Assembly (NCBI GenBank): GCA_964234715.1 | Contig: OZ174287.1 | DNA length: 64,000 bases | Strand: one strand, 5' to 3' | DNA from: Podarcis melisellensis | Taxonomy: Eukaryota | Shown here: one piece after another, positions 3,031-61,129 of the stretch | Numbering within the stretch: the first letter of the stretch is position 1 | Layout of the letters: each line of letters begins with the position of its first letter | Translations under genes and position numbers: made by a program | The notes under the pieces: model-generated | The model's database searches: none | Seen by the model: the letters and a program-made list of their open reading frames with translations, nothing else | What the model was told of the DNA's origin: nothing

Positions 3031-5879
3031 GGGCAGATATATGAAGAAGAGTGACAGTCATGATTTACTCGCTGAGGGTTAATTGTGACAGGTCCTCCTA
3101 ATCTAGATTGGCCTCTTTGCTTCAGCCAGCAAAAGAAATGCATTCTGATGTAATCCAAGTCATTCAGAAGAATATTTCAAATATTGTCTTCCCAAGGTAA
3201 ATGGGTGCAACAACATGCCACAGAACTCTTAGTAATTTCTAATATAGGCAAGTAATGTCTTGGCAAGGAGTAAAATGTGTCTCCTCTGTAACACCTACCA
3301 TGCTCTTGGCACTAAATAAATCAATACAGAGTTGGTAGCTTCTTTACTAATGTTGAATGCTCATGCTTTGATTGAATCTCTTTCAGGAGAATTGGGTTGG
3401 GGTGTGTGTGTGTGTGTTTCATTCTCTCTCTCTCTCTTTATGCTTTTCCAGTTTTCTGATTACACATCAACTCTTCCTATCATACAATGTTTCTGTGCAG
3501 ACTTCCCAACCCAACACTCTGAGGCATTCTAGATAAACTTTGTTCTTGCTGTATATCAATTACTTTGTCCACCCTATTTTTCCTCTTGCATTCATTCGTT
3601 TCAATTAGCTGTTGCTCATAAAGTTACCCCTACTTTTGAAAACTGATTTTTAGTATCATATATTTTTAAATACTCCCCAAAGCATTCCCACTTGTCCCTC
3701 GTTTGTCTGTCATTCTGGTTCCTTATTTTGGCTGTCACGTTTGTTAATTCTGCAAAAAGTTCATGCAGCCATTGTTCTTTTGTAGGAATTGGGTTGATTT
3801 TTAATGGCTCCAGCAAGGCTGGCACTGGGTAGATTTCCTCTGGGATTTAATTACATTGTGATCTTATTGCCATGCTAATTTTGCATTTATTTTTGCTACT
3901 GCCAAGATTCTTAAAGAGTAGAATTCAGTTTGACTATAGAGGTCCTTTCACCTCAAATATTATTCTGAATATGGCTAGCCTTAACGAAATCCATGCGCTT
4001 TAGAAAAATGCTTAGGTTTGACCAATTCTTCAGGGGAAGGGAGTTCCAGAAACGTTAATCCTGAAGGTAGGTAGGAGTAAATGCTACATTTCTTTTCTCT
4101 TTTTTGCCCAGAAGATGTACTCGAATTCAATTAGAGCCAAAGGGGGAGAGCTGTTGTATCATAAATATCCTGCGCCTTCCCAACCTGACACCAGGGCTGC
4201 GTTTCAGGTCTTTAAAAACACATCTGTAGGAAATCAAGTACTTCCATTGGCTCCTTTGGCATATTTACGGTTGTTGGGAAGGGGCTCCCGGGCAAAAACC
4301 TGACTGACTTATAAGGAGACTAGCACAAGGTCAGTACATGGATGGACAAAGGTACAATCTCTCTCTCTCTCATTTCCCTTGCTCTGGTCTAGTTCTTGTT
4401 GAATGGACGGGACCATTTCAGGCTGTAGCTTGGGGATCATATGCCAAAATGTTTCCGGGGGGGGGGGCACAGCGGTGCTTTCCTACCCATAGAAAACTAG
4501 CATGCTAGGAAGAAGGGGAAGTAAGAAACCCTCTTTCTAGCATCCTAGTTTTTTCTAATGGAATAGACTTCAGTTATGTGAACCTTCATCTGCAGTCTGA
4601 AGTGGTACACCTAAGAGACAGGTTTACCACACTGGCAAGAAACACTGGTGTATCCAATCAGCTCATGGTGCTGTTGGAAGTTAATGGCACTGCCTCACTG
4701 AGACCTCGCTAGTCTGCTCAAAGCAGCCTTCTTTGCCAGGAGCCTCTCAATGGATTGAAAATGAGGCAATTCCAGAGCTGAAGGATGCAGTTCCAAAGTG
4801 TTGCCACAGGGAAGCACTATAAGATTAGGATAGTTCCCTTCCCTCTGCTCACTATTAACTCCTGGAGGGTACCAAAATATCTAAGGCAATATCTTGTGTC
4901 AGATCAGTTTCTGTTGGTGTAAGAAAAGTTCCACAGAAATCTCTTATAAAATCATAGGCAGTGGAAAATCTCTAAAATGAGAAGTACTAAGGCTGAGTCT
5001 TGACAGATGGCATGCATTTTGTAATGGGAGATCCCTTACCACTAACTAATCACAATCAGTCTCTATGTGCCTCAGACTGGAGCTTTCATTTTGGATGTGT
5101 TTGAAAAAATCTCAATAATATGGAGTATGGGTCTCATCCAGACTACAGTTTTATTGTGGGTGTATGAAGCAACATGTTGTTGGTGCATTAATACATTAAT
5201 AGTGTATCGGAAATAAATTTATACTGGACCGCTTAAACACCATCCCACAGTATCAGTTGCTCTACAAGGCTTCCCCAATGCTCCTGCATTATTTCATCCA
5301 CACTTTAACTCCACCTTTGAACTCTACCTATTCCACTGCCTGTATTCCTGCCATTCCCAGCTTCTCCGCCTTCCCTCTCAAGAACAAGGCACTAGTAAGT
5401 TGTGCTCTGCTGCCATATTGTTACACACCACTCCAAGCTCCAAGTGGTGCAAGATTCTAAGGATTCCATGCACTTACCCAGGATTCATGTTTCTTTTTGG
5501 AAATAAGGCACAGTGGAGACTCTGGTGTCTTTATGATATATGGCTTATTTGCACATGTATACAACCCGAGCCTATGATGGAGGGGTTCACAGCATTAACA
5601 CCTCAAAAGGGTCATGTTTCTCCCATAGCTGCAGTCTTAGATTTAGACAGAAATAAAATATCATGCTCCGACTCTTTTTGCAGCTTGTTGCTTTTCCTCT
5701 GGTTCACATCTCACTGCCCTTTCAACTTTAAACTACGGCTTTGTCCTTCTAGCTCTCTAAGAGTTGAAGGAGGGGTTCTATTCATTTGCCGGCTGGTTCA
5801 GAGCCTCCTTTCATTTCTTCTCTTAGTGGCCCACCCCCCAGGCAATCACCTCACAAGGAAGCAAGTCTGCCTTATATAT

Positions 5880-6444
5880 TCTCAGGGACTGGGCAGATGA
5901 GGAGGAGTGGTGGAGACCACCACCCCAAGAGCCTTCCAGAGAGAAGGAAGGGGGGGAGAGTATGGACCTGGAATCATGGTGGTTTGAGACGGGACACACC
6001 CCAGAAGAAGAAAGGAGCTGGGAAATAATGGGTGATGAAGAACAGGAGCAAGATAGCAGGTGCACCAGCCCTGAACAGAGACAGGAGTCAGATGTGTTAG
6101 AAACAGTATTGAACCAAGTGATACGCTGTCTCTGGAGAGTATGTTAGAGCCACCTCCTTCCACTAGGACCAGACATGCCCTTCATGCCTCAGAGCAGAAA
6201 GTCAAACAGAGACAGAGGGATTCCCTTAGCAGCTGCTGTAGGCAGCAAGAGGGGTCTGAGGGCTAAGAGGTAAATGCAAGGGGGTTGGAGCAGCACTCTG
6301 AGCAACTTCGGCTCAAGCTTGAGGGTGTACATTTCATGTTTTCCTGTGTTTCTGTGGATTAAAATAAAAGAACTGAAAGAAGCTCTCTGCATCTCTGATT
6401 TCACTAGGCAGTTAGCCAGCAAGCTGTTGACAGCACCCCTGACA
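5880..6444 (+). mobile_element. Gypsy-type solo LTR
   Basis: Ends T(C)TCAGGGA...CCCCTGACA; 5-bp TSD TATAT (5875-5879 and 6445-6449); AATAAA near 6362; acidic coding remnant in U3. Confidence 0.7.
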
Positions 6445-15100: not shown

Positions 15101-16132
15101 GGGGAGGGGAGAAGTCGTTGAAGAAACTGACAATGGGGAGGTGAAGCATGGGACAGAACAGGCTGAGCACTTCTCCAGGGGTGGCCCATCCTGTTTTGCC
15201 ACCTGAGGTGAAACAGGAAGGTGCCCCCCACCCCTGCCTCGCTTACCAGGGTTGTGTAGCAGCAGTGGTTTCTGTAGAGATCTTGTGGCACTCTCACAAC
15301 ATCTTGCCAGAAGCTGCAGCCATGTGATTCCTGCAGTGGCAGGTGGGTGCCTGCAGGGGCACTGCCTCATGGGCTTCTGCCACCTGAGGCAACTGCTTCA
15401 GTCCACCTCATGGGCGGGCCAGCCCTGCACCTCCCCCTCCAATATGCACTTTTTAATGTTAAAGTAAAACACTTCAACCCCACTGCTATATATATGAACA
15501 AGCTAGACACGTGAATCATGACCCTGTCACACCTTAACTGTTCTATGGCTTCCTGTTTAATGTACACACATTAGCAAATCCAGGTTTCTTGAACTGGATG
15601 GAATGGCCCCATGGCTCCCTTTCCTACCTGTCAAAGAATATGTCTTATTTGTGTAAATGGTAGTCAGAGAAGGAAGGCCCCTGCTGACTCTGAACCTTAA
15701 CCGTGTTGACTATCTAGCTCATGTCATTTACAGATTCTATAAGACTCCTAAGCCCCATAAGACTGGCTTCTTCCAAAACTTCTGGAAAACATGATGGAGA
15801 GGGAAACTAAGAATTTGTTGCACTCCTGCAACTCTAGTGATCTCTCTTGTGTTCCCCCTACCCCCAATCCCTGCACACATTAGCCTCACATTGCAGCAAC
15901 ATTCAGTGCTGTGAGAAATACTGCCAACTTAATAGTAACAGCAGAAAAAATCAGGGAAACCTTACTAAGTTGGGAAAAATTCATGGTTAAGGCCACAAAT
16001 GAAGTGTGCTTAAGGTTGCCACATCAACATTTTAAAAATAAGGTATGTAGTGATGAAGACTCTCCCAAGAATACATTTTAAAAAATAATAAATTGTCCAG
16101 TAGCACTGTAGAGACGAACTAAGTTTGTTCTT

Positions 16133-16169
16133 GGTATAAGCTTTCGTGTGCATGCACACTTCTTCAGAT
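16133..16169 (-). ncRNA. Minimal type I hammerhead ribozyme core (PLE-associated)
   Basis: Minus strand reads CUGAAGA-A-GUGUG-CAUG-CACAC-GAA-AGCU-U-AUACC; the 5' strand of stem I is truncated. Confidence 0.6.
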
Positions 16170-16231
16170 TTCATACATGCACATGAAAGCTTATACCAAG
16201 AACAAACTTAGTTGGTCTCTAAGGTGCTACT

Positions 16232-16280
<49 letters not shown>

Positions 16281-16284
<4 letters not shown>

Positions 16285-16431
16285 GGTTTTGGAGTTTCTC
16301 GTAGGTTCTTGTCAGCTGGAAGGTTTCCTCCCCGTAGAGGTGAGATATTTGCTTTCGTAGATTTTCACGGGTACAGGAATGCAGGTTTTGCAAAACCTGC
16401 ATTCCTGTACCCGTGAAAATCTACGAAAGCA
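16281..16431. mobile_element. Penelope-like ORF-start fragment with a perfect 82-bp palindrome, inserted in (TA)n
   Basis: 16350-16390 is the exact reverse complement of 16391-16431. The minus strand reads RENLRKQISHLYGEETFQLTRTYEKLQ, which resembles a PLE ORF N-terminus (recalled, not searched). Confidence 0.55.
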
Positions 16432-17620
16432 TATATATATATATATATATATCGACTGCATCAGACCAACACAGCTACCTACCTGAATCTCTCCCAAGAA
16501 TGTCAGAGACAAAGCAAACTCAGATCCACCTGATTCCAACTGCAGATGCAGAAGCCCTGATTTTTTTAGGCCGACACCCTCTCCATTGACACTAGAAAAG
16601 AGAGCTCCAGACCTCAGTTTCTTCTTCATTTTATTCATTACGCCTGAGCTGCTCTACAGGCTCAAGTCTGAAATCTTCCAAGACCTCATATGAGACCAAT
16701 CTAAATGCTTCAAAGTAACAAAGTTTCTTAACAGGAAACATTTGCTTCCTGTCAGCAAGGTAAATAGATTATCATCATAAGATCACTATCACAAAACTTA
16801 GGCATACACACTAACCCATTTTAAACACAAAAATGTAGAATCATTCATGCTCATCCTCAACATGTTGCTTTCAATCTAGATTGATTCTAGATCCTGCAGT
16901 CCACAAGGGTGAGGGCAACTCTGTGATTTTGTTTGATAACTGTCCCCTTGGTTAGGCTATCCATGCCTTTTCCTCCCCTCACATGCCCCAAGTGAATGAT
17001 GAGCAAAGTGGTGGTCGCTATCTTGGTACAGGTCTAACTGCAACGCCATTGGTTAGATATGAATACAACTCCCATTGCCGAGACCGCCTACACCTGTTTT
17101 TATTTGTTTCAAATGGCCACATTTATTTTCTGAATGAAACCAGTTTCTCAAGAAGCACTTTTCAGGGACAGAAAATATGGAATAGGTTTAGATTGTCTGT
17201 GGACTATACGGGGTGGGGTGGGGACACACAAGTACTCCATCTCCACTGAACCTAGAGTAAGATGTGTGTACGCAACCATATCCCAGCTTTCAAGAAAATA
17301 TAGCTTTTAAAAAGCCTTTATAAAAAATGTGAGAGATGGGAGCTATATCAAGAAGGCTCCATTATACTGAAAGCAGGCCCTCTGAGCTAGATCTTAAGGT
17401 ACTGGCCGGATTATATGCAAACATTCATTTATATAACCTAGTCCCAAGCTGTTCAGGTTTTAAAAGTTAACAACCAGCACTTTGAGTTGTGCCCAGGATT
17501 GTAACAGTATTGGTTACAAAATCAGGATAGCATATTATGATTACCTGGCCGGCCCTCACCACAGCTTAGAGGCAGGATTCTGTACCAGCTGGAAACTTCA
17601 TAACAATTAAGCTCATAGAC

Positions 17621-33589: not shown

Positions 33590-34030
33590 CACAGGAGACT
33601 CACAGTCCCTCTCTGCGTCTCTGTTCCTTTTTAGCCACTGTCAAACAAGGGCTATGGCAACTGTCATACTGATCCTAAGCTGAATACCTGCCCAGTGCAG
33701 CTTCAGGTCCCCCACCAAGTGCCCTTCTAGAACCCACCACTCTCAACACTCTCAACTGCCTCCCCCACAACATTCAAATTCGCTTTCCAAGTCTCCTCCA
33801 ATCTCCACTCTCTGCCAGAATTCTGGAATCCAACTTGGGAAGGCTGGCTGTCCTGCTGTGGAGGAAAAGTCCCTCTTGCAAGGACTCTGCTGTACTCTTT
33901 CTTAAAGCTACAACTGTCTCCGCCATGTCTCAGTTTTCCAAAGGTGAGAGCCTGGAACCCCATGGGCTCTTGCCACCACTCGGCAGAGAGAGGGGAGGCA
34001 CCCAACTTTTGGAGCAATATTTTATACATC
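33590..34030 (-). mobile_element. Old LTR-like element, related to 36090-36435
   Basis: Shared GGCACCCA(A/G)CTTTTG and CTC(C/T)GCCATGTCTC segments; purine-rich, acidic-coding minus strand. Confidence 0.45.
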
Positions 34031-34991: not shown

Positions 34992-35182
34992 AAACTGAGA
35001 CATGGCGGAGACTGTTGTAGCTTTAAGAAAGAGTACAGCAGAGTCTTTGCAAGAGGGACTTTTCCTCCACAGCAGGATAGCCAGCTTTCCCAAGTTGGAT
35101 TCCAGAATTCTGGCAGAGAGTGGAGATTGGAGGAGACTTGGAAAGCGAATTTGAATGTTGTGGGGGAGGCAGTTGAGAGTGT
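34992..35182. repeat. 191-bp inverted copy of 33746-33936
   Basis: Reverse complement aligns without gaps; I count about 4 mismatches. Confidence 0.92.
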
Positions 35183-35224
35183 CAAAGATGTCAAACTTTA
35201 AAATCCCATCTTTGACTCCATCCC

Positions 35225-35782
35225 ATCTAGGAGTCTTGGTTGACCACAAACTTGACATGAGCCAACAGTGTGACGCGGCAGCTAAAAAAGCCAATGCAAT
35301 TCTGGGCTGCATCAATAGGAGTATAGCATCTAGATCAAGGGAAGTAATAGTGCCACTGTATTCTGCTCTGGTCAGACCTCACCTGGAGTACTGTGTCCAG
35401 TTCTGGGCACCACAGTTCAAGAAGGACACTGACAAATTGGAACGTGTCCAGAGGAGGGCAACCAAAATGGTCAAAGGCCTGGAAACGATGCCTTATAAGG
35501 AATGGCTAAGGGAGCTGGGCATGTTTAGCCTGGAGAAGAGGAGGTTAAGGGGTGATATGATAGCCATGTTCAAATATATAAAAGGATGTCACATAGAGGA
35601 GGGAGAAAGGTTGTTTTCTGCTGCTCCAGAGAAGCGGACACGGAGCAATGGATCCAAACTACAAGAAAGAAGATTCCACCTAAACATTAGGAAGAACTTC
35701 CTGACAGTAAGAGCTGTGGCAGGGGGTTGGACTCGATGGTCCTTGTGGTCTCTTCCAACCCTATGATTCTATGATTCTATGA
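35225..35782 (+). mobile_element. Young 5'-truncated CR1 LINE (ORF2 C-terminus and 3' tail)
   Basis: LGVLVDHKL...[16 protein letters not shown]...[11 protein letters not shown]...RLRGDMI; (ATTCTATG)n tail; the ORF end is fused directly to the 3' UTR. Confidence 0.93.
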
Positions 35783-52115: not shown

Positions 52116-53521
52116 CAAGGCTCTATTTTTTTAGTGGGTGATTTTAAATATGTGCAAACTAACGTTAATTCACTGTGCTATTATGAAAATCAGGGGTCCC
52201 CGTTTCAAAAGGCAGCCACCCTATAAAGAGGCAATTCCCTAATACATGGGTTTTCAGTTGCTAGTCTTTATAGCTTTTCATTATAGCACTCCACCAAGCG
52301 TGCATGCTCTCTCCCCCCCTCTCTTCGTGCAGGAGAGGCTTCAGCGGAAGAAATAAAAAACCTGTGAAGATTTCCCATTCTCACTTTTGTTTCTCATAAA
52401 GACAGTCAGGCTCTGACATAAACAACAATTTACACCCAGCATTTATTTTGGAAATTACAGTGGCGTGTGGCTAACGCACACAGATAAATAATGTTTTATG
52501 GGATTCTGCAGAGTCCTTTCAGGGGAGCGGATGTTTAGTAGAAATAAGATGATTTACAAAATGGAGCACTCTGGATTTGGCTGTTAATCCTGGGAAAAAT
52601 ACAGACATACAAGGAGCTTCCACAATTAAAACGGATTAAAAGAGAGAGGGGATGGAGAAATAAATGGAATCTGCTTTTTGGGGAGTGGAGTGCACTAGAT
52701 GGACATTCCCATTTTGCTCCCCACCAAAGGCACAGTGATCATATCCAAAGCAACATGTTTTTGCATAACATCAATGAAAGCGAAATCCAGAGATCCCATA
52801 TCAATGGTCTCTTTGCAGGATAGACATTTCTCATAAAGAGGGTAAACTACAAGCTACCAGGTGATCCACAGCACTCAAACTGCAAGAATCTCCTTCTAAT
52901 ATCTGAATTTTTGACATTAATATGTCAAACTCCGGATACACACATTAAAGCTTTTAAATACAATCTGATGTCCAATAACCTGTGGGGTGCAGAATATGGT
53001 AAGCAGGACTCTTGAACATAGTATCCTACTGAACACTGCTGACTCCCATAACCTGTCATCAGAAAATGATGTTCTTGGGAGTTTGTCCAACAGAAATACA
53101 GGTCTCAGGATTTTTATGGATTCTAAGCATAGCTGGCAGGTGAGTTACAGAACAACTCAAGATCCCAGCCACACACTAAGCACCTATGTTTTTGCCAAAC
53201 AGGACCCTAGAACCTTCATAAAGGATGCAGAATTTGGCTGCTTTACAGAAGTTAAGCACCTCCCCATTTTTTCCCTTGTCTTGGAGAAGGAAGAACCCAT
53301 GGACAGCAGGGGAGGCAGGAGGCTTAGTCAGCAGACTGAAATGCTGGGGAGGACTGAGATTGATGAAGAAGACAATCCAGTCCAACGATTAGAATCCTGG
53401 AGGGCAAGAATAGCAGACAGCTACACACACAGGGAGAGACAGGATGCAGATGCAGGTCAGGGGTTTGAAGAACGTTAGGACACAAGGCTTGCAGAACCAT
53501 GGACAGATCACTGGAGCCAAG

Positions 53522-53622: not shown

Positions 53623-55556
53623 CTACCTCTCCCAAATACCCCACCCTCACTCACTAAAGAAGGGAGATCCTTAATGAGGCAGTCTGCAATGAAGCACTCA
53701 ATTGCCTTTCCATTGCTTATATTCTAGTGTGCTCCATACGCCTGTCCCACAGCCTCTGGGAACTGAGAAGCGAGTGGAGGGGTACACCTCAATCCCACAG
53801 GGGTTTTGGACTCATGAAGAGTTGTCTTTAGTACGGGTGGGGGTGGGATAGAGTAGTTCAATTTCAGGAATGAAAGTTCTGGGGGCTCATGGCTGCTAGG
53901 CTTTTCAGGTGGCACTGATGACCTGGATCCAACTAGCTCTTTGTCCGAGTCCTAGCTGCTGTTCAAGGCCAGGGCCATGACAATCCAGCCCAATACCCTG
54001 AAAGTCCAGCCTCATGCTCACAAAAGCACACCCCTTCACCAAGAACGCAAGGCACAAAAAGTCCAGGCTGAAACCTCAGAGAAAACGAACACATTTGTAT
54101 GCATGGATTTTTTTTCCTGAACACAATTGTGAGGTTGACTAGGCTGAGAGGGTGACTTGTCCAAGGTCACCATATACCTTCACAGGTGGCGGAGAGTTAG
54201 ACCTGGTTCTGCCTAGTCCAGGTTTAACACACACAAGTCCTACACTTCACTGGCTCTTAATGACAGAATGCTTGGCTGGCAGCCATTGCCCTTTAAGAAG
54301 CTACATTGGCTCAGAAGTAAGAACAAGGTCATGAAGGATTTCCCTGGCTCACAGTACGTCAGCCACCTGATAGGGTCAACAACATGGTTAATGGATAATG
54401 CAGCAGCACTTTTATCAAGCTTTCTTGCCTCTTTGATCTGACTACTTCTGGCATTTGTTCTTGTTTGTTAAAATGAAAATCAATTTAGGAGCAGTGACTC
54501 TGAGTGGACAGGCAGGTGCTTAACCCCTCCCTCACTGCTTATTTACAAATTCCTGGAAACTGCCAAAAACTTGAATGCTGCTTGACGCTCTGGAAAAAAC
54601 TCACCAACCCCTCAAGAAAAATATTGTCCTTCCTTTAACAATAGTTTAAGATTCAATTATTTTACAAGCAGACTGTCTCTAATTGGTTTTTGTTTTGTTT
54701 TGTTTTACGGCCTTCTATTCCTCCTGTTTTTAATTTAATATTATTCTATTATTGGTACTTTTTTGTCTCAGTTGGGGTGGGGAACTTTTGATCCTCCAGA
54801 TGTTACTGGACTACAACTCCTATCACCCTTGACCAGTAGCTCTGCTGCCCGCAACTAATAGGAAATGTAGCCCAACAACATCGGGAAGTCCACAGGTTTC
54901 CCATCCTTGGTTTAGATTAAGGTAAAGTCATTATGATGTCCTATCTCCATACGTGTCTTGATAGTAACTAGTTTTCAGATACTTTATCAATAGTAAGAGA
55001 AATAATTTGCTGACAAATGTGGAAATGGAAAGACCTAGAAGTAAGTAGAAGCATATCGTGAATAACATGCTTGATTTGACAAGGTCAGCAAAGAAATAGA
55101 ACTGAAAACATGTGGTAAAGGAGTATTTATTTTAGCATTAGGAAATGCTGGCAAATCTGTACAAATATTTTCAAGCAAGTCAAGTTGTATCAACTAAGGA
55201 AAATGTGTCTATGTAGTTAGTTACAACTGTCAGCTGTATGTCGAAGTTGGCATCTTCTAACCTTAGAAGATTATTCTTCCATCTAAGAAAAAGGGCTTCC
55301 AGCTAAGTATGGATTAATTTGCTAGATCAATCAACTTCAGATCTAGGTATCAAATGCGGTCCTCCATGCCATCAAGGCTGGTCCATTAGGGTGAATGGGG
55401 CGCTGCTCCACCAAGCTCAGCCTGCCCTCAGTCTGCCCTGCCCTGCCTGCCTTCTTACAGTCAGTCTAATCGGTGACACCACCTGTCAGCCTCCTTCTCC
55501 TTAGTCTCAGTGTTGTCCTTATAGAACTCAGAAGGGAAGAGAAAGGCCATGCCTAT

Positions 55557-55968
55557 TGTGATGGGATAATGAGCTGCTTGTGCGTAAAAGCTTGATCCCT
55601 CTGGTGTTTGGCTGGTCATCCAAACCAAGGCACTAACGGAGCCTCCCAAGGCGTGACTCCGTTAGTCGCTGGTAGAATCTGACAGTGGGCGTCTACGAAA
55701 TTTACTCCAACATAAAAGTTGTTTCACGGACATGCGCCTTCGTGACTCTCTACGTGACAGCTTCCGGCGAAGGGTGGGAGTTGCCAACGGGGGTCTTGTT
55801 ACCTCTGCACTATTCTCACTAGAAGTATCCCAGAGCCCTCCCTCCTCCGACTCCCCTTCTGCCGGAGCTTCTGCTCTCCCCCTGCTGGTTCCCTCCTCCG
55901 CTGCAGAATCTCTCCGAGTCTGCTGGAGCCCCGGCACCAACTCTCTTTCCGATGGCAGTTCCCTGACA
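55557..55968 (-). repeat. 3' LTR of the chromovirus (412 bp)
   Basis: Identical to 60662-61073; preceded on the minus strand by a polypurine tract. Confidence 0.97.
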
Positions 55969-58900
55969 TCCACCTCCCCCTCAGGGCCCCCTTCACCCCC
56001 CGCGTCCTCTCCCACTGGCGGTGAAGGCGGAAAGCCCCTAAAGGAACTCTCCTCGTCGTCCGAGGATTCAAACACTTCTAACCATGGCGTACCGTCTCTC
56101 TCCCCGTCTTCCTCTTCTTTGTCGGAGTCGGCTTCCTCACCCACCCCTGACTCTGGGAACCCTCCAAACTCTCCTTCCTCATCAGTGGTCCCAAAGTGTT
56201 CCCTTCTAAATCGTGCCACGGGTTGCGGTTTCTTTGGGAAACGCCTATGAAATGTTTCTATTAAAACCTCGTCATTGACTACCTCAGCGGGTACCCAAGT
56301 GTTTTCCGACTCTACTTCCCCCTCCCATTCTACCAGATATTCCACCTGATCCCCCTTCCACCTGGAATCAATGATTCCTGCCACGTTCATGTCGCGTTCT
56401 CTCTCTTCTATCACGGGCGTTCGGGAGACCTCTCTCTCACGCTCCCCCCCCCATTCACGTCCCTCTCGGTACGGCGACAGTAATGACCTGTGAAATACTG
56501 GGTGCAATTTCATGTGACTGGGCAGTCTGAGTTTGAATGCTACTGGGTTCACCTGCTGTATGACCTCAAAGGGTCCCAATCTTTTGGGTTTCAGTTTCTT
56601 ACAACCCCCCTTGAAAGGTAGTCCCTGGGTGGATAGCCACACCCGGTCTCCCACCCTTATAGTTTCACCTTCCCTCCTATTTTTGTTTGCTTGCTTTTTA
56701 TATTCTTCCTTGGCTCTCTCTAAGTTAAGTTGTAGCTGACGGTGGATGGCTTCCATCTCTTCAACAAAATGTTCCGCTGCCGGCACACTCCACCTCTCCC
56801 CTCCTTCTCCTGGAAATGCCCTGGGATGACACCCATAATTTGCCAGAAAGGGACTCAGCCCTGTGGACACGTTCTCAGCGTTGTTGTAGGCAAATTCTGC
56901 CAGAGGTAACTTATCTACCCAATCATTTTCTCGGTCCTTTACATAACACCTCAGGTATTGTTGTAAAATCCCGTTTGCCCTTTCCGCTTGCCCATTTGTT
57001 TCCGGGTGCCGGGCAGTGGAGAAATTGATTTCCACGTGCAGTAAGCTCATAAGTTTCCTCCAGAACCTGGAAGTAAACTGTTTCCCTCTGTCGCTGACCA
57101 CCCTCAAGGGGGCCCCATGCAACCGGAAAATATGCTCTACGAACAACTTGGCGGTTTCCTCCGCTGTGACCGCATGTGAACAGGCTATAAAATGACACAT
57201 CTTAGTTAATAGATCTACCACTACCATGACCGCCGTTTTGCCCTTGGATTTTGGCAGGTCCGTCATAAAATCTATGGAGACTGCCTCCCATGGCCTTTCT
57301 GGTGTGGGTAAGGGTTGTAAGAGCCCCGCTGGCGCCACCCTCTCCCCTTTCGCTCGCTGGCACCTGTCGCAACCCCTGACATATTCCCGTACATCCTCCC
57401 TCACCTTGGGCCACCAAAAATCCCTGGTAACCAACCACATGGTTTTGTGCTGTCCAAAATGCCCCGCTGTGGGGCTATCATGCAACTGCTTGAGTACTCT
57501 GCCCCTCAGTTCCCCATCAGGTATGTACAGTGCCCCTTTGTAATACAACGCCCCACTCTTTTCTTCAAACCCCCCTGTGTTCTCCGCTGTCCTCCTGAGT
57601 TCTCTGAGTTTCTCTTGGGCGTATTCGTCGTTCTCCGTGCCCTCTAACAGTTCTTTCTGCCCCACCAAAGCCGCCCCACACACCCAGCGGTCTTCAGGGA
57701 TTACGTGCCTTGCTTCCGGCGCGCCCTCCCCCTCTAAGTACTCAGGCTTTCTGGAAAGAGCGTCCGCTCTTACGTTCTCGGACCCTGGCACGTAACGAAT
57801 CTCAAAATTGAATTTGGAGAACTCCTGGGCCCATCTCACTTGTCTCTGGTTCAGCACTCGGGCTGTTCTCCAGTACTCCAGATTTTTGTGGTCCGTCCGG
57901 ACTTGAACCTTGTGCTGCGCCCCAATCAGCAAGTGCCGCCATCTCCGGAATGCTTCATGAATGGCGAGCAGTTCTCGGTCGTATACTGTGTAGTTCCTCT
58001 CGGATTTGTTCAACTTCCGCGAGAAGAATGCACACGGTCTCCATTCAGACGCATCTTTCCCCGGCTGGAGAAGCACGGCCCCTACCACTCGGTCTGACGC
58101 GTCCGTCTCCACTCGCATTGGTTGCCGTAGATCCACGTGCAAAAGTTGCTCCTCCGACGCAAACGCTGCCTTTAAGCGTTCGAATGCCCCTTGCGCTTCT
58201 TCCGTCCAAGCAAATTTTTTCTTGCTGCTAAGACAATCCGTGATGGACGCTGTTAAATGGGCAAAATTCTTGATGAACTTCCTATAGAAGTTTCCGAAGC
58301 CCAGGAACCTTTGCACGTCCTTCTTGGTCTTTGGTGTTTTCCATTCCAGTACCGCTTGAACCTTGCTGGGATCCATAGCCAACCCCTTGTCAGACAACCG
58401 GTACCCCAGGAATTCCACCTCCCTGCTATGAAACTGGCATTTCTCCAGTTTCACCCACAGCCGATTTTCTCGCAGCTTGCTCAGTACTTCTCTAACATCT
58501 CGCACATGCTGCTCCTCATTCTCTGAGTACACCAGGACGTCATCTAAGAACGCCACGCAGTTCTTGTAAAGCAATGGCCCCAGGACGTGATTCATGAATG
58601 ATTGAAAGCAGGCGGAGCCCGCTTGTAATCCAAAAGGCATAACGAGGTACTCAAACGCCCCCAAGGGGGTGAACATAGTGGTTTTCCACTCATCCCCCTT
58701 CCTCACGCGTATCAAGTTATATGCCCCCCTAAGGTCCAGCTTAGTAAAAATCTTCCCTTTTCTCACCCGTGTCAGAATGTCATCAATTCTGGGCATAGGG
58801 AAAGTCACTGGTTCTGACACAGCATTTAGGGCCCTGAAATCACACACAAGCCTGGGTTTGCCCGTGTTTTTTTTGTCCACAAAGAACACTGGGCTGCCCC

Positions 58901-59660
58901 CCACCGCTCGTGACTCTCTGATGAAACCTCGCTTGAGGTTCTTGTCAATGAACTCCCTTAACTCCTGCATCTCACGGTCTGACATGGCATACAGCTTGCC
59001 CACTGGCAATTGTGCTCCTGGGAGTAAGGTGATTTGACAGTCAAAGGGTCTGTGCGGGGGCAGTTTATCAGCTTCCTTTTCACTGAAGACGTCAATCAAA
59101 TCAGCGTATTGTGGTGGCACCTTCCCCTTGTCAGTCACTTCCATCCCTGCTAGAGTGGCTCTGGCCCCTGCCTGACCCTCTCCCTCCTTGCAGTGTTCTA
59201 GGCAATGTGCTGAACCAAAGGAAACAACCCTCTGATGCCAGCCTACTAGCGGATCGTGTAGTGCCAGCCAGCTCATTCCCAGAATGATGGGAGCTCCTCC
59301 CAAGGTGGCTACATTAAACGCTATCAGTTCTGTGTGTCTTGCCACCCTCATAATCATTGGTACAGTCTGTTGGCTCACTTCTCCCCCCAACAGTTCCCTC
59401 CCATCAATCGTGGTTACTTGCAAAGGCTTACTTAATGGGAGAGTTTGTATCTGGTGTTCAGCAGCAAACTCCTTACTCATGAAATTACAGGAGCTGCCTG
59501 AATCCAATAGCGCTTTTATCTTTAGTGGGTGTCCGTTTGACAGTTCCAGCAACACCTCTATCACAAGCGCTGGTCTTGGAGGTTCCGGCGTGGGCACATT
59601 CATTACTCCCTGGCCTGGCTGCTGTGCCCTGATGTTGGCAACCAGGCGTTGGCTTTTACT
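55662..59660 (-). CDS. pol: Pol polyprotein (aspartic protease, RT, RNase H, integrase, chromodomain, acidic/basic tail), probably expressed by -1 frameshift from gag
   Basis: Within ORF 55662..59774: ALLDSG (PR), KLDLRGAY/PFGL/FLDD (RT), ETDASD/TDHKNL (RH), HDSPTAGH...CDRC, IDF, SDRG, ETNGQAE (IN), GPF, IIDSRWKG-QVEYLVEWEG-ENTWVP (chromodomain). The start given is the inferred frameshift site. Confidence 0.95.
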   Translation of the reverse strand, partial: SKSQRLVANIRAQQPGQGVMNVPTPEPPRPALVIEVLLELSNGHPLKIKALLDSGSSCNFMSKEFAAEHQIQTLPLSKPLQVTTIDGRELLGGEVSQQTVPMIMRVARHTELIAFNVATLGGAPIILGMSWLALHDPLVGWHQRVVSFGSAHCLEHCKEGEGQAGARATLAGMEVTDKGKVPPQYADLIDVFSEKEADKLPPHRPFDCQITLLPGAQLPVGKLYAMSDREMQELREFIDKNLKRGFIRESRAVGGSPVFFVDKKNTGKPRLVCDFRALNAVSEPVTFPMPRIDDILTRVRKGKIFTKLDLRGAYNLIRVRKGDEWKTTMFTPLGAFEYLVMPFGLQAGSACFQSFMNHVLGPLLYKNCVAFLDDVLVYSENEEQHVRDVREVLSKLRENRLWVKLEKCQFHSREVEFLGYRLSDKGLAMDPSKVQAVLEWKTPKTKKDVQRFLGFGNFYRKFIKNFAHLTASITDCLSSKKKFAWTEEAQGAFERLKAAFASEEQLLHVDLRQPMRVETDASDRVVGAVLLQPGKDASEWRPCAFFSRKLNKSERNYTVYDRELLAIHEAFRRWRHLLIGAQHKVQVRTDHKNLEYWRTARVLNQRQVRWAQEFSKFNFEIRYVPGSENVRADALSRKPEYLEGEGAPEARHVIPEDRWVCGAALVGQKELLEGTENDEYAQEKLRELRRTAENTGGFEEKSGALYYKGALYIPDGELRGRVLKQLHDSPTAGHFGQHKTMWLVTRDFWWPKVREDVREYVRGCDRCQRAKGERVAPAGLLQPLPTPERPWEAVSIDFMTDLPKSKGKTAVMVVVDLLTKMCHFIACSHAVTAEETAKLFVEHIFRLHGAPLRVVSDRGKQFTSRFWRKLMSLLHVEINFSTARHPETNGQAERANGILQQYLRCYVKDRENDWVDKLPLAEFAYNNAENVSTGLSPFLANYGCHPRAFPGEGGERWSVPAAEHFVEEMEAIHRQLQLNLERAKEEYKKQANKNRREGETIRVGDRVWLSTQGLPFKGGCKKLKPKRLGPFEVIQQVNPVAFKLRLPSHMKLHPVFHRSLLSPYREGREWGGEREREVSRTPVIEERERDMNVAGIIDSRWKGDQVEYLVEWEGEVESENTWVPAEVVNDEVLIETFHRRFPKKPQPVARFRREHFGTTDEEGEFGGFPESGVGEEADSDKEEEDGERDGTPWLEVFESSDDEESSFRGFPPSPPVGEDAGGEGGPEGEVDVRELPSERELVPGLQQTRRDSAAEEGTSRGRAEAPAEGESEEGGLWDTSSENSAEVTRPPLATPTLRRKLSRRESRRRMSVKQLLCWSKFRRRPLSDSTSD
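55969..55982 (-). other. Polypurine tract
   Basis: Minus-strand GAGGGGGAGGTGGA abuts the 3' LTR. Confidence 0.85.
59592..59660 (-). promoter_or_regulatory. Putative gag-pol -1 frameshift signal with H-type pseudoknot
   Basis: Stem 1 GCCUGGUUGC/GCAGCCAGGC; stem 2 GGGCACA/UGUGCCC; 6-nt spacer after A_GUA_AAA; pol is in the -1 frame relative to the knuckle frame. Confidence 0.65.
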
Positions 59661-60615
59661 GGCTCCTCTATTTCGCCTTCCTCCTTTCCCCCAACAGTTC
59701 CCGCCATGCCCTGCCATTCCTTCCTTTGCGGACAAACTCTGGCAAAGTGCCCTGGCTGTTGGCAGAGATAACATCTCTTGGCGCTCTTTCCCTCCTTCTT
59801 CCGCCCTTCACTGGTGTTTGAAACTGCGCGCGCGCGTGCGCTGTTCCCAGCTCCATCGGCTCGGCGGGCGGGAAAGACTGCTCCGGAATCTCTGGAATGC
59901 GGAAGTCCTTCCAACGTTCCCCCTTTCCTTCCCGCCTTTCCAACGCTCTTGCTTCTAGGCGCGCTCCTATGGACAGTGCAGATTTAGTCAGCTGGTCCAT
60001 AGACTCTGCCCTGGGCGCCCGGGAAAGTTCATCTTTCACAGTTGGGGAGAGCCCTTCTTCAAATAACATTTGAATTGGTTCACTTGCTAGATCCCACCCC
60101 AGTCTATGAATAAGCATAGTGAACTCAGTCCAGTACTCACGTACAGATCAGCTCCCCTGTTTGCACCCCATCAACTGCCTCCGCACCACCCCCAGCTCAA
60201 TCTCGCTGGAAAACATCAAGTCCATGGCGCGAAAAAACTTCCTCGTGTCCTTTAAGATATCATTATTGGCTGCCATCAGAGGTCGAACCCAGTCCCTCGC
60301 CCCTCCCTCTAGATGGCTAATCACGTACGCCACTCTAGAGTTCTCATCGGTGAAGTCATCAAACAGTATATTGAGAGCATATTGCATCTCCGTTCTAAAG
60401 GCTTGATAGTTCCTGGGATCCCCCCCAAATCGCTGCACCAATCCAGGCACCTTTCTGGCAAGTGGGGCGGTTTTCCCCTTATCCGCATCTTGAGCCCTCC
60501 TCTCCTCCAGCCTCGCCGTTTGCAGCGCGAGCTGCACCTCCATCGCCCTGTACCTTTCCTCCAGGCTAGGACCTGCGCCAGCTCCAGCTCCTGCGGTTCC
60601 GGCTGGTTCGCTCAT
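59603..60615 (-). pseudogene. gag: Gag with capsid-like domain and CCHC zinc knuckle, disrupted by an in-frame TGA and a frameshift
   Basis: ATG at 60615 (MSEPAG...). RFGGDP...YVISHLEGGARDW...KQGS*SVREYW with the stop at 60148-60150. The same frame continues to EPMELG. The knuckle CYLCQQPGHFARVC lies in the -1 frame after a (GC)n run at about 59826-59840. Confidence 0.88.
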
Positions 60616-60648: not shown

Positions 60649-60659
60649 ACTGTCAGATT
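60649..60659 (-). other. Self-priming primer binding site (no tRNA complement)
   Basis: Minus-strand AATCTGACAGT lies 2 nt after the 5' LTR and is the exact complement of LTR-internal ACTGTCAGATT (60781-60791). There is no TGG tRNA-type PBS. Confidence 0.85.
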
Positions 60660-60661
60660 GC

Positions 60662-61073
60662 TGTGATGGGATAATGAGCTGCTTGTGCGTAAAAGCTTGA
60701 TCCCTCTGGTGTTTGGCTGGTCATCCAAACCAAGGCACTAACGGAGCCTCCCAAGGCGTGACTCCGTTAGTCGCTGGTAGAATCTGACAGTGGGCGTCTA
60801 CGAAATTTACTCCAACATAAAAGTTGTTTCACGGACATGCGCCTTCGTGACTCTCTACGTGACAGCTTCCGGCGAAGGGTGGGAGTTGCCAACGGGGGTC
60901 TTGTTACCTCTGCACTATTCTCACTAGAAGTATCCCAGAGCCCTCCCTCCTCCGACTCCCCTTCTGCCGGAGCTTCTGCTCTCCCCCTGCTGGTTCCCTC
61001 CTCCGCTGCAGAATCTCTCCGAGTCTGCTGGAGCCCCGGCACCAACTCTCTTTCCGATGGCAGTTCCCTGACA
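60662..61073 (-). repeat. 5' LTR of the chromovirus (412 bp)
   Basis: Reads base-for-base identical to 55557-55968; minus strand begins TGTCAGGGA and ends ATCACA. Confidence 0.97.
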
Positions 61074-61129
61074 CCTATCATTGGCTCTGGCTTCACCTAC
61101 TGCTTGACCTCCCTACCTTATTGCCCTAT

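Follow-up and report, generated by a model that had tools for sequence, protein, structure and literature searches.

The window analysed here is a stretch of 64,000 nucleotides from the lizard Podarcis melisellensis (contig OZ174287.1 of assembly GCA_964234715.1). It harbors a complete Ty3/gypsy element at 61073-55557 on the minus strand, and the coding U3 described below is the 3′ end of that element: the pol frame runs past the chromodomain of the integrase, crosses the polypurine tract and ends inside the long terminal repeat (LTR). The tail encoded in this manner carries two motifs of the FxGF type, which may bind the host proteins LEDGF/p75 or HRP2. The features on which the analysis turns, all on the minus strand, are the following (TIM, TND-interacting motif; TND, TFIIS N-terminal domain):

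59807..55662, minus: pol frame of 1381 codons with protease, reverse transcriptase, RNase H, integrase, SH3, chromodomain and tail (open reading frame and Pfam)
56241-56384, minus: chromodomain, residues 1142-1189, whose three cage positions hold M, W and E (a single aromatic residue, W)
56157-56213, minus: TIM-like motif 1, residues 1199-1217; predicted helix, then F, an acidic Thr linker of 8 residues, and FGGF
56031-56084, minus: TIM-like motif 2, residues 1242-1259; W-x3-F anchor, 9-residue acidic Ser linker, FRGF
55969-55982, minus: polypurine tract, read through in frame
55557-55968, minus: 3′ LTR, whose coding part is U3 (putatively 55968-55687) plus the first 22 bases of R
55734-55772, minus: basic cluster, residues 1346-1358, LTR-encoded, with a TP motif ahead
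55701-55730, minus: conserved terminal motif ending in LLCW, residues 1360-1369, predicted helix
55662-55664, minus: pol stop codon, at +22 of R and within the 5′ arm of a predicted hairpin
60649-60659, minus: 11-base self-priming stretch just behind the 5′ LTR (base match and predicted fold)

The pol frame through U3

The pol gene is a single stop-to-stop frame in which Pfam domains score above the cut-off in the order protease, reverse transcriptase, RNase H and integrase, followed by Chromo. Both this order and the position of the chromodomain, in the C-terminal region of the integrase, fit a Ty3/gypsy chromovirus. Beyond the chromodomain the frame remains open for 192 codons, of which about 91 lead to the LTR edge via the polypurine tract and 101 lie in the LTR. 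The initial annotation had described this read-through, with its stop at 55664-55662, and the open reading frame and LTR coordinates confirm it. The 91-92 or so residues between the chromodomain end and the LTR contain 28 D/E, in agreement with the very acidic segment noticed there, and the tail peptide motifs quoted at the time are present. The tail was also said to be disordered: AlphaFold2 predicts folded SH3 and chromodomain regions and a tail with a confidence score (predicted local distance difference test, pLDDT) below 50 except for short helices at residues 1197-1203 and 1361-1369. No match to the tail was found in Pfam, the PDB (single-sequence search) or the ESM Atlas. When sequence of this composition was shuffled or simulated, the 101 LTR codons stayed open by chance in 1.1-2.6% of trials, and the 188 codons of 56228-55665 in 0.03-0.15%.

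An 11-base stretch that immediately follows the 5′ LTR can pair with LTR position 283 (55686 in the 3′ copy), and the putative transcription start at 55686 rests on this complementarity. The pairing is present in the minimum-energy RNA fold (z = -4.8 against 200 shuffles). Self-priming is the mode used by Tf1/Sushi chromoviruses (PMC6317226). A hairpin is predicted in R inside the self-priming fold, at 55630-55666 and 60735-60771 (minus strand), and its 5′ arm holds the pol stop; neither AATAAA nor ATTAAA occurs in the LTR. The terminal motif of pol (55701-55730) shares sequence with a T/A-rich box located at -32 relative to the putative start, and the last pol codons do so with the 11 bases complementary to the primer site. 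Because of these overlaps, part of the conservation of the terminal helix may lie at the DNA or RNA level.

Conservation was examined in 27 family proteins. Five of them lack the integrase-end anchor or end before it (one such fragment was aligned), and 22 relatives were aligned. The end point of the window protein is shared by 14 of the 22, so that the claim of a protein-coding U3 whose frame is kept in relatives stands; five end inside the LTR-encoded part and three before the polypurine tract. A single protein (1/22) stops right after the chromodomain. The closest labelled relatives are Podarcis muralis gene models with 85-87% identity over pol, and two full-length relatives are plain open reading frames from Logan contigs. 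Within the family the LTR-encoded part spans 100, 103 or 115 codons; P0037 (74% integrase identity) has 102 and P0085 (60%) has 101. In a group of about 48% identity three members reach 209-218 codons and two others stop at 147 and 151. For relatives, the LTR edge was taken from the protein (a D-V junction), not from DNA. Every complete LTR-encoded part terminates in the basic cluster and then [LI]L-x-W, and length changes among the aligned proteins are in-frame only. Identity within the family is 79-86% for the basic cluster and, at the protein level, 22-67% for the first half of U3. A third homologue search (133-424 residues) added nothing.

Comparison at the DNA level involved four sequencing runs and gave 12 indel rows in 1501 bases. 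The best DNA run (1237 contigs) shows no indel in the coding part of the LTR; two single-base indels lie 18-20 bases beyond the pol stop, and one single-base insertion falls within the integrase. An RNA run contains a -1/+1 indel pair in U3, three bases apart. Support of this kind for frame-keeping is thin because contigs drop rare variants. None of the 40 differences listed, out of 250, is in U3. One RNA run is uninformative on expression: of its 206 reads, none is 99% alike and 83% continue into unlike sequence.

The LTR-encoded part, made of an acidic/Ser spacer, the basic cluster and the terminal helix, is likely a second module that serves in nuclear import or in nucleosome or DNA contact. 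A module of the same kind is likely shared with sister squamate families devoid of FxGF. Elements of Anolis, Vipera and another Podarcis family have tails of 125-140 residues that are acidic and then basic, seemingly across the polypurine tract as judged from protein ends. Among the cage-intact sister families, P0192, P0194 (Anolis) and P0196 (Podarcis) have long tails ending in RRSAR, which we take to be reminiscent of nucleosome acidic-patch anchors; P0192 and P0194 also show an acidic stretch ending in NLGF.

How unusual this overlap is was judged from 120 full-length pol hits, in 84 of which a chromodomain could be located. Of the 73 rows lacking a squamate label, 65 have a tail shorter than 50 residues; of the 11 squamate-labelled rows, 10 have one of at least 100 residues. 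In metagenome contigs, where 80 of 196 loci were retained and all matches were at the level of the chromodomain, both LTRs were found at 11 loci; all 11 stop at or before the LTR. No relative was found in the viral contigs searched. The initial annotation had thus been right that chromovirus pol usually ends early. Its other premise, that LTR overlap is mainly retroviral, does not hold, as the open reading frame runs into the 3′ LTR in plant CRM group A and beet Bingo chromoviruses (PMC3059260, PMC3605345). Like the lizard element, CRM group A and Bingo1-4/7 code into the 3′ LTR, and there the LTR-encoded part is taken as a targeting domain. However, in CRM group A a CR motif replaces the chromodomain and priming is by tRNA-Met, whereas the lizard element keeps the chromodomain upstream, is self-primed and has a tail without Pfam match. 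Fish-type chromovirus proteins (P0094, P0119, P0142, P0168 and similar ones) end about 20 residues past a GGxVT stretch, in SP(E/V)[FY]. These protein ends suggest that short read-through into the LTR may be common in vertebrates. The LTR overlap is a lineage trait with precedent. The open reading frames that overlap the LTR in human immunodeficiency virus (HIV; nef) and mouse mammary tumor virus (MMTV; sag) are separate genes expressed from spliced RNAs; they also code over U3, but in the lizard element U3 is the in-frame end of pol. Evolution of a promoter and a peptide on the same stretch has until now been described for plant chromoviruses; the coding U3 adds a case from a vertebrate.

FxGF motifs and the chromodomain cage

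The most specific signal in the tail is the pair of FxGF motifs, which lie before the polypurine tract and outside U3; the initial annotation mentions neither these motifs nor the incomplete chromodomain cage. The pattern upstream of the LTR is doubled: a hydrophobic anchor that ends in F, an acidic Ser/Thr linker of 8-9 residues, and FxGF. Each linker contains two S/T with an acid at +3, the site pattern of the kinase CK2, and the predicted helix of residues 1197-1203 stands directly ahead of motif 1. In 13 of 14 relatives, identity to the window protein is 63-79% in the motifs versus 22-43% in the spacer between them, and in motif 2 residues W1242, F1246, F1256, G1258 and F1259 are invariant in 15/15 rows. 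Because both motifs lie outside the LTR, promoter constraint cannot explain them.

The architecture resembles that of the TIM, defined as a helix with an F/V/L/I anchor, an acidic S/T linker of 8-16 residues phosphorylated by CK2, and FxGF (PMC9987994). According to the same source, FxGF is required by all known LEDGF and HRP2 partners, and several host proteins carry two TIMs. A strict consensus for the motif that binds the integrase-binding domain (IBD) of LEDGF, the IBD-binding motif (IBM), reads D/ExExFxGF (PMC8022399), and 4 of 12 profile rows have it. The Drosophila kinase JIL-1 uses DFxGF (10.1101/624023), a form also present in P0037, P0039 and P0085. With the motifs of JPO2 (CDCA7L), IWS1, MLL1, PogZ, ASK, MED1 and JIL-1 the lizard tail shares the hydrophobic anchor, an acidic Ser/Thr linker of 8-9 residues, FxGF and the tandem arrangement. 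However, the bearers of TIMs and IBMs are host proteins (PogZ being a domesticated transposase), whereas the lizard candidate motifs belong to the integrase of a mobile element.

The likeness to LEDGF motifs had been put on record before the PDB was searched, with a profile of 12 rows built from element sequences only. With E values of 10 or less allowed, this profile matched 3 of 177,635 PDB sequences. The JPO2 part of the LEDGF-JPO2 chain 5YI9_A had the highest score for a single stretch (12.2 bits versus 6.8), at a non-significant E of 0.66. A control profile made from acidic tail stretches without FxGF gave no PDB match, and the motifs have none in Pfam. Among 391 collected proteins the FxGF profile scores 26, all of this lizard group, and FxGF is absent in the 28 translated metagenome matches that reach residue 81. 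A Podarcis group (P0188-P0191, P0321, P0337, P0386) has lost the chromodomain W too; it has F-x8-FxGF with a Ser/Thr linker and tails of at most 374 residues.

The predicted fold of the window chromodomain matches that of chromodomains. Cage positions were read by alignment to the HP1 pattern. Type I chromodomains need three cage residues to read H3K9 methylation (PMC3059260), and the window chromodomain does not have the three aromatic residues of that type. A tree was built from the 3′ half of the integrase plus the chromodomain, with 37 of 39 rows (P0002 and P0175 were dropped as too short). Motif-bearing rows (11/37) form one clade with 100/100 support; the deeper forks are open. This clade adjoins another that contains elements of Anolis, Podarcis and Vipera and an unlabelled one; the window element groups with the Anolis, Podarcis and Vipera elements with support of 94/92, in a tree whose rows included no named V-clade reference. 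The chromodomain could be located in 53 of 76 members of the FxGF clade and in 28 of 53 squamate rows outside it. Within the clade, F-x8/9-[FLM]xGF is found in 51/53 members and the full cage in 0/53 (10 keep two aromatic residues); in the squamate rows outside, the motif is found in 0/28 and the full cage in 27/28.

A proposed LEDGF/HRP2 tether and other explanations

Our preferred interpretation, which we place slightly above even odds (a probability of about 0.55), is that the two FxGF motifs bind the IBD, a TND, of host LEDGF/p75 or HRP2, and tether the integration complex to chromatin. Among the functions that the initial annotation had considered for the tail (nuclear localization, histone or chaperone mimicry, targeting), a targeting module is the likeliest. 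The FxGF tail would remain on the integrase, CK2-type Ser/Thr sites in the linkers may be phosphorylated, raising affinity, and the tail would then dock on the IBD of LEDGF/p75 or HRP2. As the PWWP domain of these proteins reads H3K36me2/3, insertion would be biased to transcribed genes, as in lentiviruses; lentiviral integration tethered by LEDGF/p75 is directed to transcribed gene bodies (PMC9987994, PMC8149907). Such a tether may have taken over targeting from a chromodomain that would no longer read methyl-lysine, and the LTR-encoded half would supply basic residues for import or nucleosome contact. A broader scenario, tentative and somewhat short of an even bet, is that the lineage swapped its targeting: the cage was lost, tandem host-type LEDGF/HRP2 motifs with a phosphorylation switch were gained, an HIV-like H3K36me3 gene-body tether was reached independently, and a second module arose over the promoter.

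If the tether exists, a mobile element equipped with the host's own FxGF would represent a second, independent route to LEDGF, and a chromovirus would have traded heterochromatin reading for active chromatin. LEDGF use has been described for lentiviral integrases, via a folded surface. The proposed partner and outcome (transcribed gene bodies) are the same in the lizard element; however, HIV integrase accommodates the IBD in a cleft formed by two folded protomers, while the lizard element would use a disordered linear motif of host type. In form, the lizard tail is nearer to the flexible tail of murine leukemia virus integrase, which binds BET proteins. Tandem LEDGF-type motifs together with cage loss in a retrotransposon integrase are apparently undescribed: no paper on such a motif was found among the titles and beginnings of abstracts listed, with subscription journals and Repbase/GyDB entries outside the scope. 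Around the element, a search for host genes covered 10 of the 103 other long frames in the flanks or close to them, and none of the 10 gave a match above the cut-off. The long frames 52969-53478 (+) and 5827-6147 (+) read like possible host exons and have no Pfam match.

Several observations weigh against the tether. Eight of the 22 relatives end earlier than the window protein, three of these before the polypurine tract. Most relatives are gene models, a kind of data that favors open frames, and in which an early end may reflect either an incomplete model or a true break. The motifs also depart from their host counterparts: measured against the strict consensus, those of the window agree at -4 (E) and deviate at -2 (G or S), the first F of motif 1 is replaced by L or M in many Podarcis copies, the linker of the P0188 group contains Ser/Thr and no D/E, and the most distant relative, P0085, has no motif 1 (26% identity) and a motif 2 at 47%. 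No helix is predicted in motif 2 (pLDDT below 50), though its W-x3-F is invariant. The match to 5YI9_A falls short of significance and, when ranked by whole-sequence E, comes right after two ribosomal chains; further PDB entries of LEDGF with peptides named in PMC8022399 are absent from the profile matches, and the window sequence alone found no match in the PDB. As regards the cage, 10 of 25 family rows retain Y at its first position. Moreover, cage loss and motif gain amount to a single evolutionary event, not to a correlation, so that a hand-over from one to the other is suggested, not proven.

Among the competing explanations, the one we rate highest, though still improbable, also involves the motifs: they would bind LEDGF/HRP2 or another TND protein (TFIIS, Elongin A, MED26, PNUTS) for purposes of transcription or stability, for instance to keep a new copy active, without steering integration. 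The TIMs of host proteins act mostly in elongation and in the regulation of chromatin (PMC9987994), JIL-1 is stabilized by FxGF contact with the fly LEDGF-like protein (10.1101/624023), and evidence from sequence cannot separate such uses from targeting. However, the motifs are fused to the integrase directly behind the chromodomain, the usual site of targeting modules (PMC3059260), and the clade that has them lacks a complete cage. Slightly less probable is that the read-through of U3 has been kept for reasons of RNA: a stop near the RNA end would avoid decay triggered by a long 3′ untranslated region, the U3 peptide would have little function of its own, and conserved stretches would reflect the polypurine tract, the att site, the TATA-like box and the self-priming sequence. 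The best-conserved U3 peptide does overlap the T/A-rich box, as the last codons overlap the primer-pairing bases, and both the divergence of the first half of U3 and the spread of lengths (100-218 codons) are in line with this idea. Yet it leaves unexplained the FxGF motifs outside the LTR; the terminal basic residues and [LI]L-x-W are reached in the same frame despite very different U3 lengths, and the well-conserved basic cluster lies upstream of the box.

About as doubtful, or a little more so, is the proposal that an acidic tail with spaced aromatic residues mimics a histone H2A-H2B chaperone and loosens target nucleosomes, the likeness to FxGF being incidental. Acidic-plus-aromatic histone-binding motifs occur in chaperones, the acidity of the segment before the LTR is high, and sister squamate tails are acidic in the absence of FxGF. 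However, neither the tail nor its motifs have a Pfam match, the invariant residues are the anchor and F-x-G-F and not the acids, and a fixed G would not be expected in a plain acidic chaperone patch. Finally, the whole tail might be neutral read-through of a purine-rich, stop-poor region, which we regard as very improbable. It is true that U3 alone stays open in 1-3% of shuffles, that the set of relatives is biased to open frames and that one family protein does stop right after the chromodomain. The chance of an open frame over 188 codons is, however, far lower, 14 of 22 relatives share the end point, conserved islands coincide with the motifs, and the aligned proteins differ in length by whole codons. 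Neutral read-through is largely refuted by this conservation.

Remaining features of the element and the window

The element is bounded by the following features, and gag lies upstream of pol:

61074-61078, minus: target-site duplication ATAGG, 5′ side
60662-61073, minus: 5′ LTR of 412 bp, the promoter-side copy of the last 101 pol codons (LTR comparison)
59603-60615, minus: gag, with capsid and CCHC knuckle (Pfam and open reading frames)
55552-55556, minus: target-site duplication ATAGG, 3′ side

The 5′ and 3′ LTRs agree at 412 of 412 bases and have TG..CA termini. Their identity, together with these ends and the presence of ATAGG on both flanks, indicates a recent insertion. The element appears to be a chromovirus of the sushi/V-clade type. 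Vertebrate V-clade Tf1/Sushi elements (Sushi-ichi, Amn-ichi/ni/san) have the same order from protease to chromodomain, self-priming, TG..CA LTRs and a 5-bp duplication (PMC6317226). The lizard element is set apart from fish-type chromoviruses, whose tails measure about 50 residues and whose cages are Y/W/Y, by its 192-residue FxGF tail and incomplete cage.

The gag gene of the window copy is broken twice: an in-frame TGA lies at 60150-60148, and the frame changes ahead of the knuckle. Given the identical LTRs and the intact pol, the window copy was probably mobilized with gag supplied by another copy; alternatively, there may be an assembly error at 59603-60615. The gag and pol genes overlap by about 200 bases (59601-59807, minus strand), pol being read in frame -1. 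The stop codon of gag shares bases with an ATG without counterpart in relatives, and stop-restart translation of pol at this TAATG was discarded, as the Met is replaced by K in 9/9 relatives shown. No classic slippery site was found in the overlap; two GGGAAAG heptamers are weak frameshift candidates.

Elsewhere in the window, an inverted pair at 33746-33936 and 34992-35182 (191 bases, 98% complementary, 1055 bases apart) adjoins the frame 35155-35766 (+). This frame has no Pfam hit and resembles what we take to be the 3′ end of a CR1-type long interspersed nuclear element. A perfect 46-base palindrome without spacer is present at 16345-16436, and inverted arms of 84 bases are found at 16071-16259.

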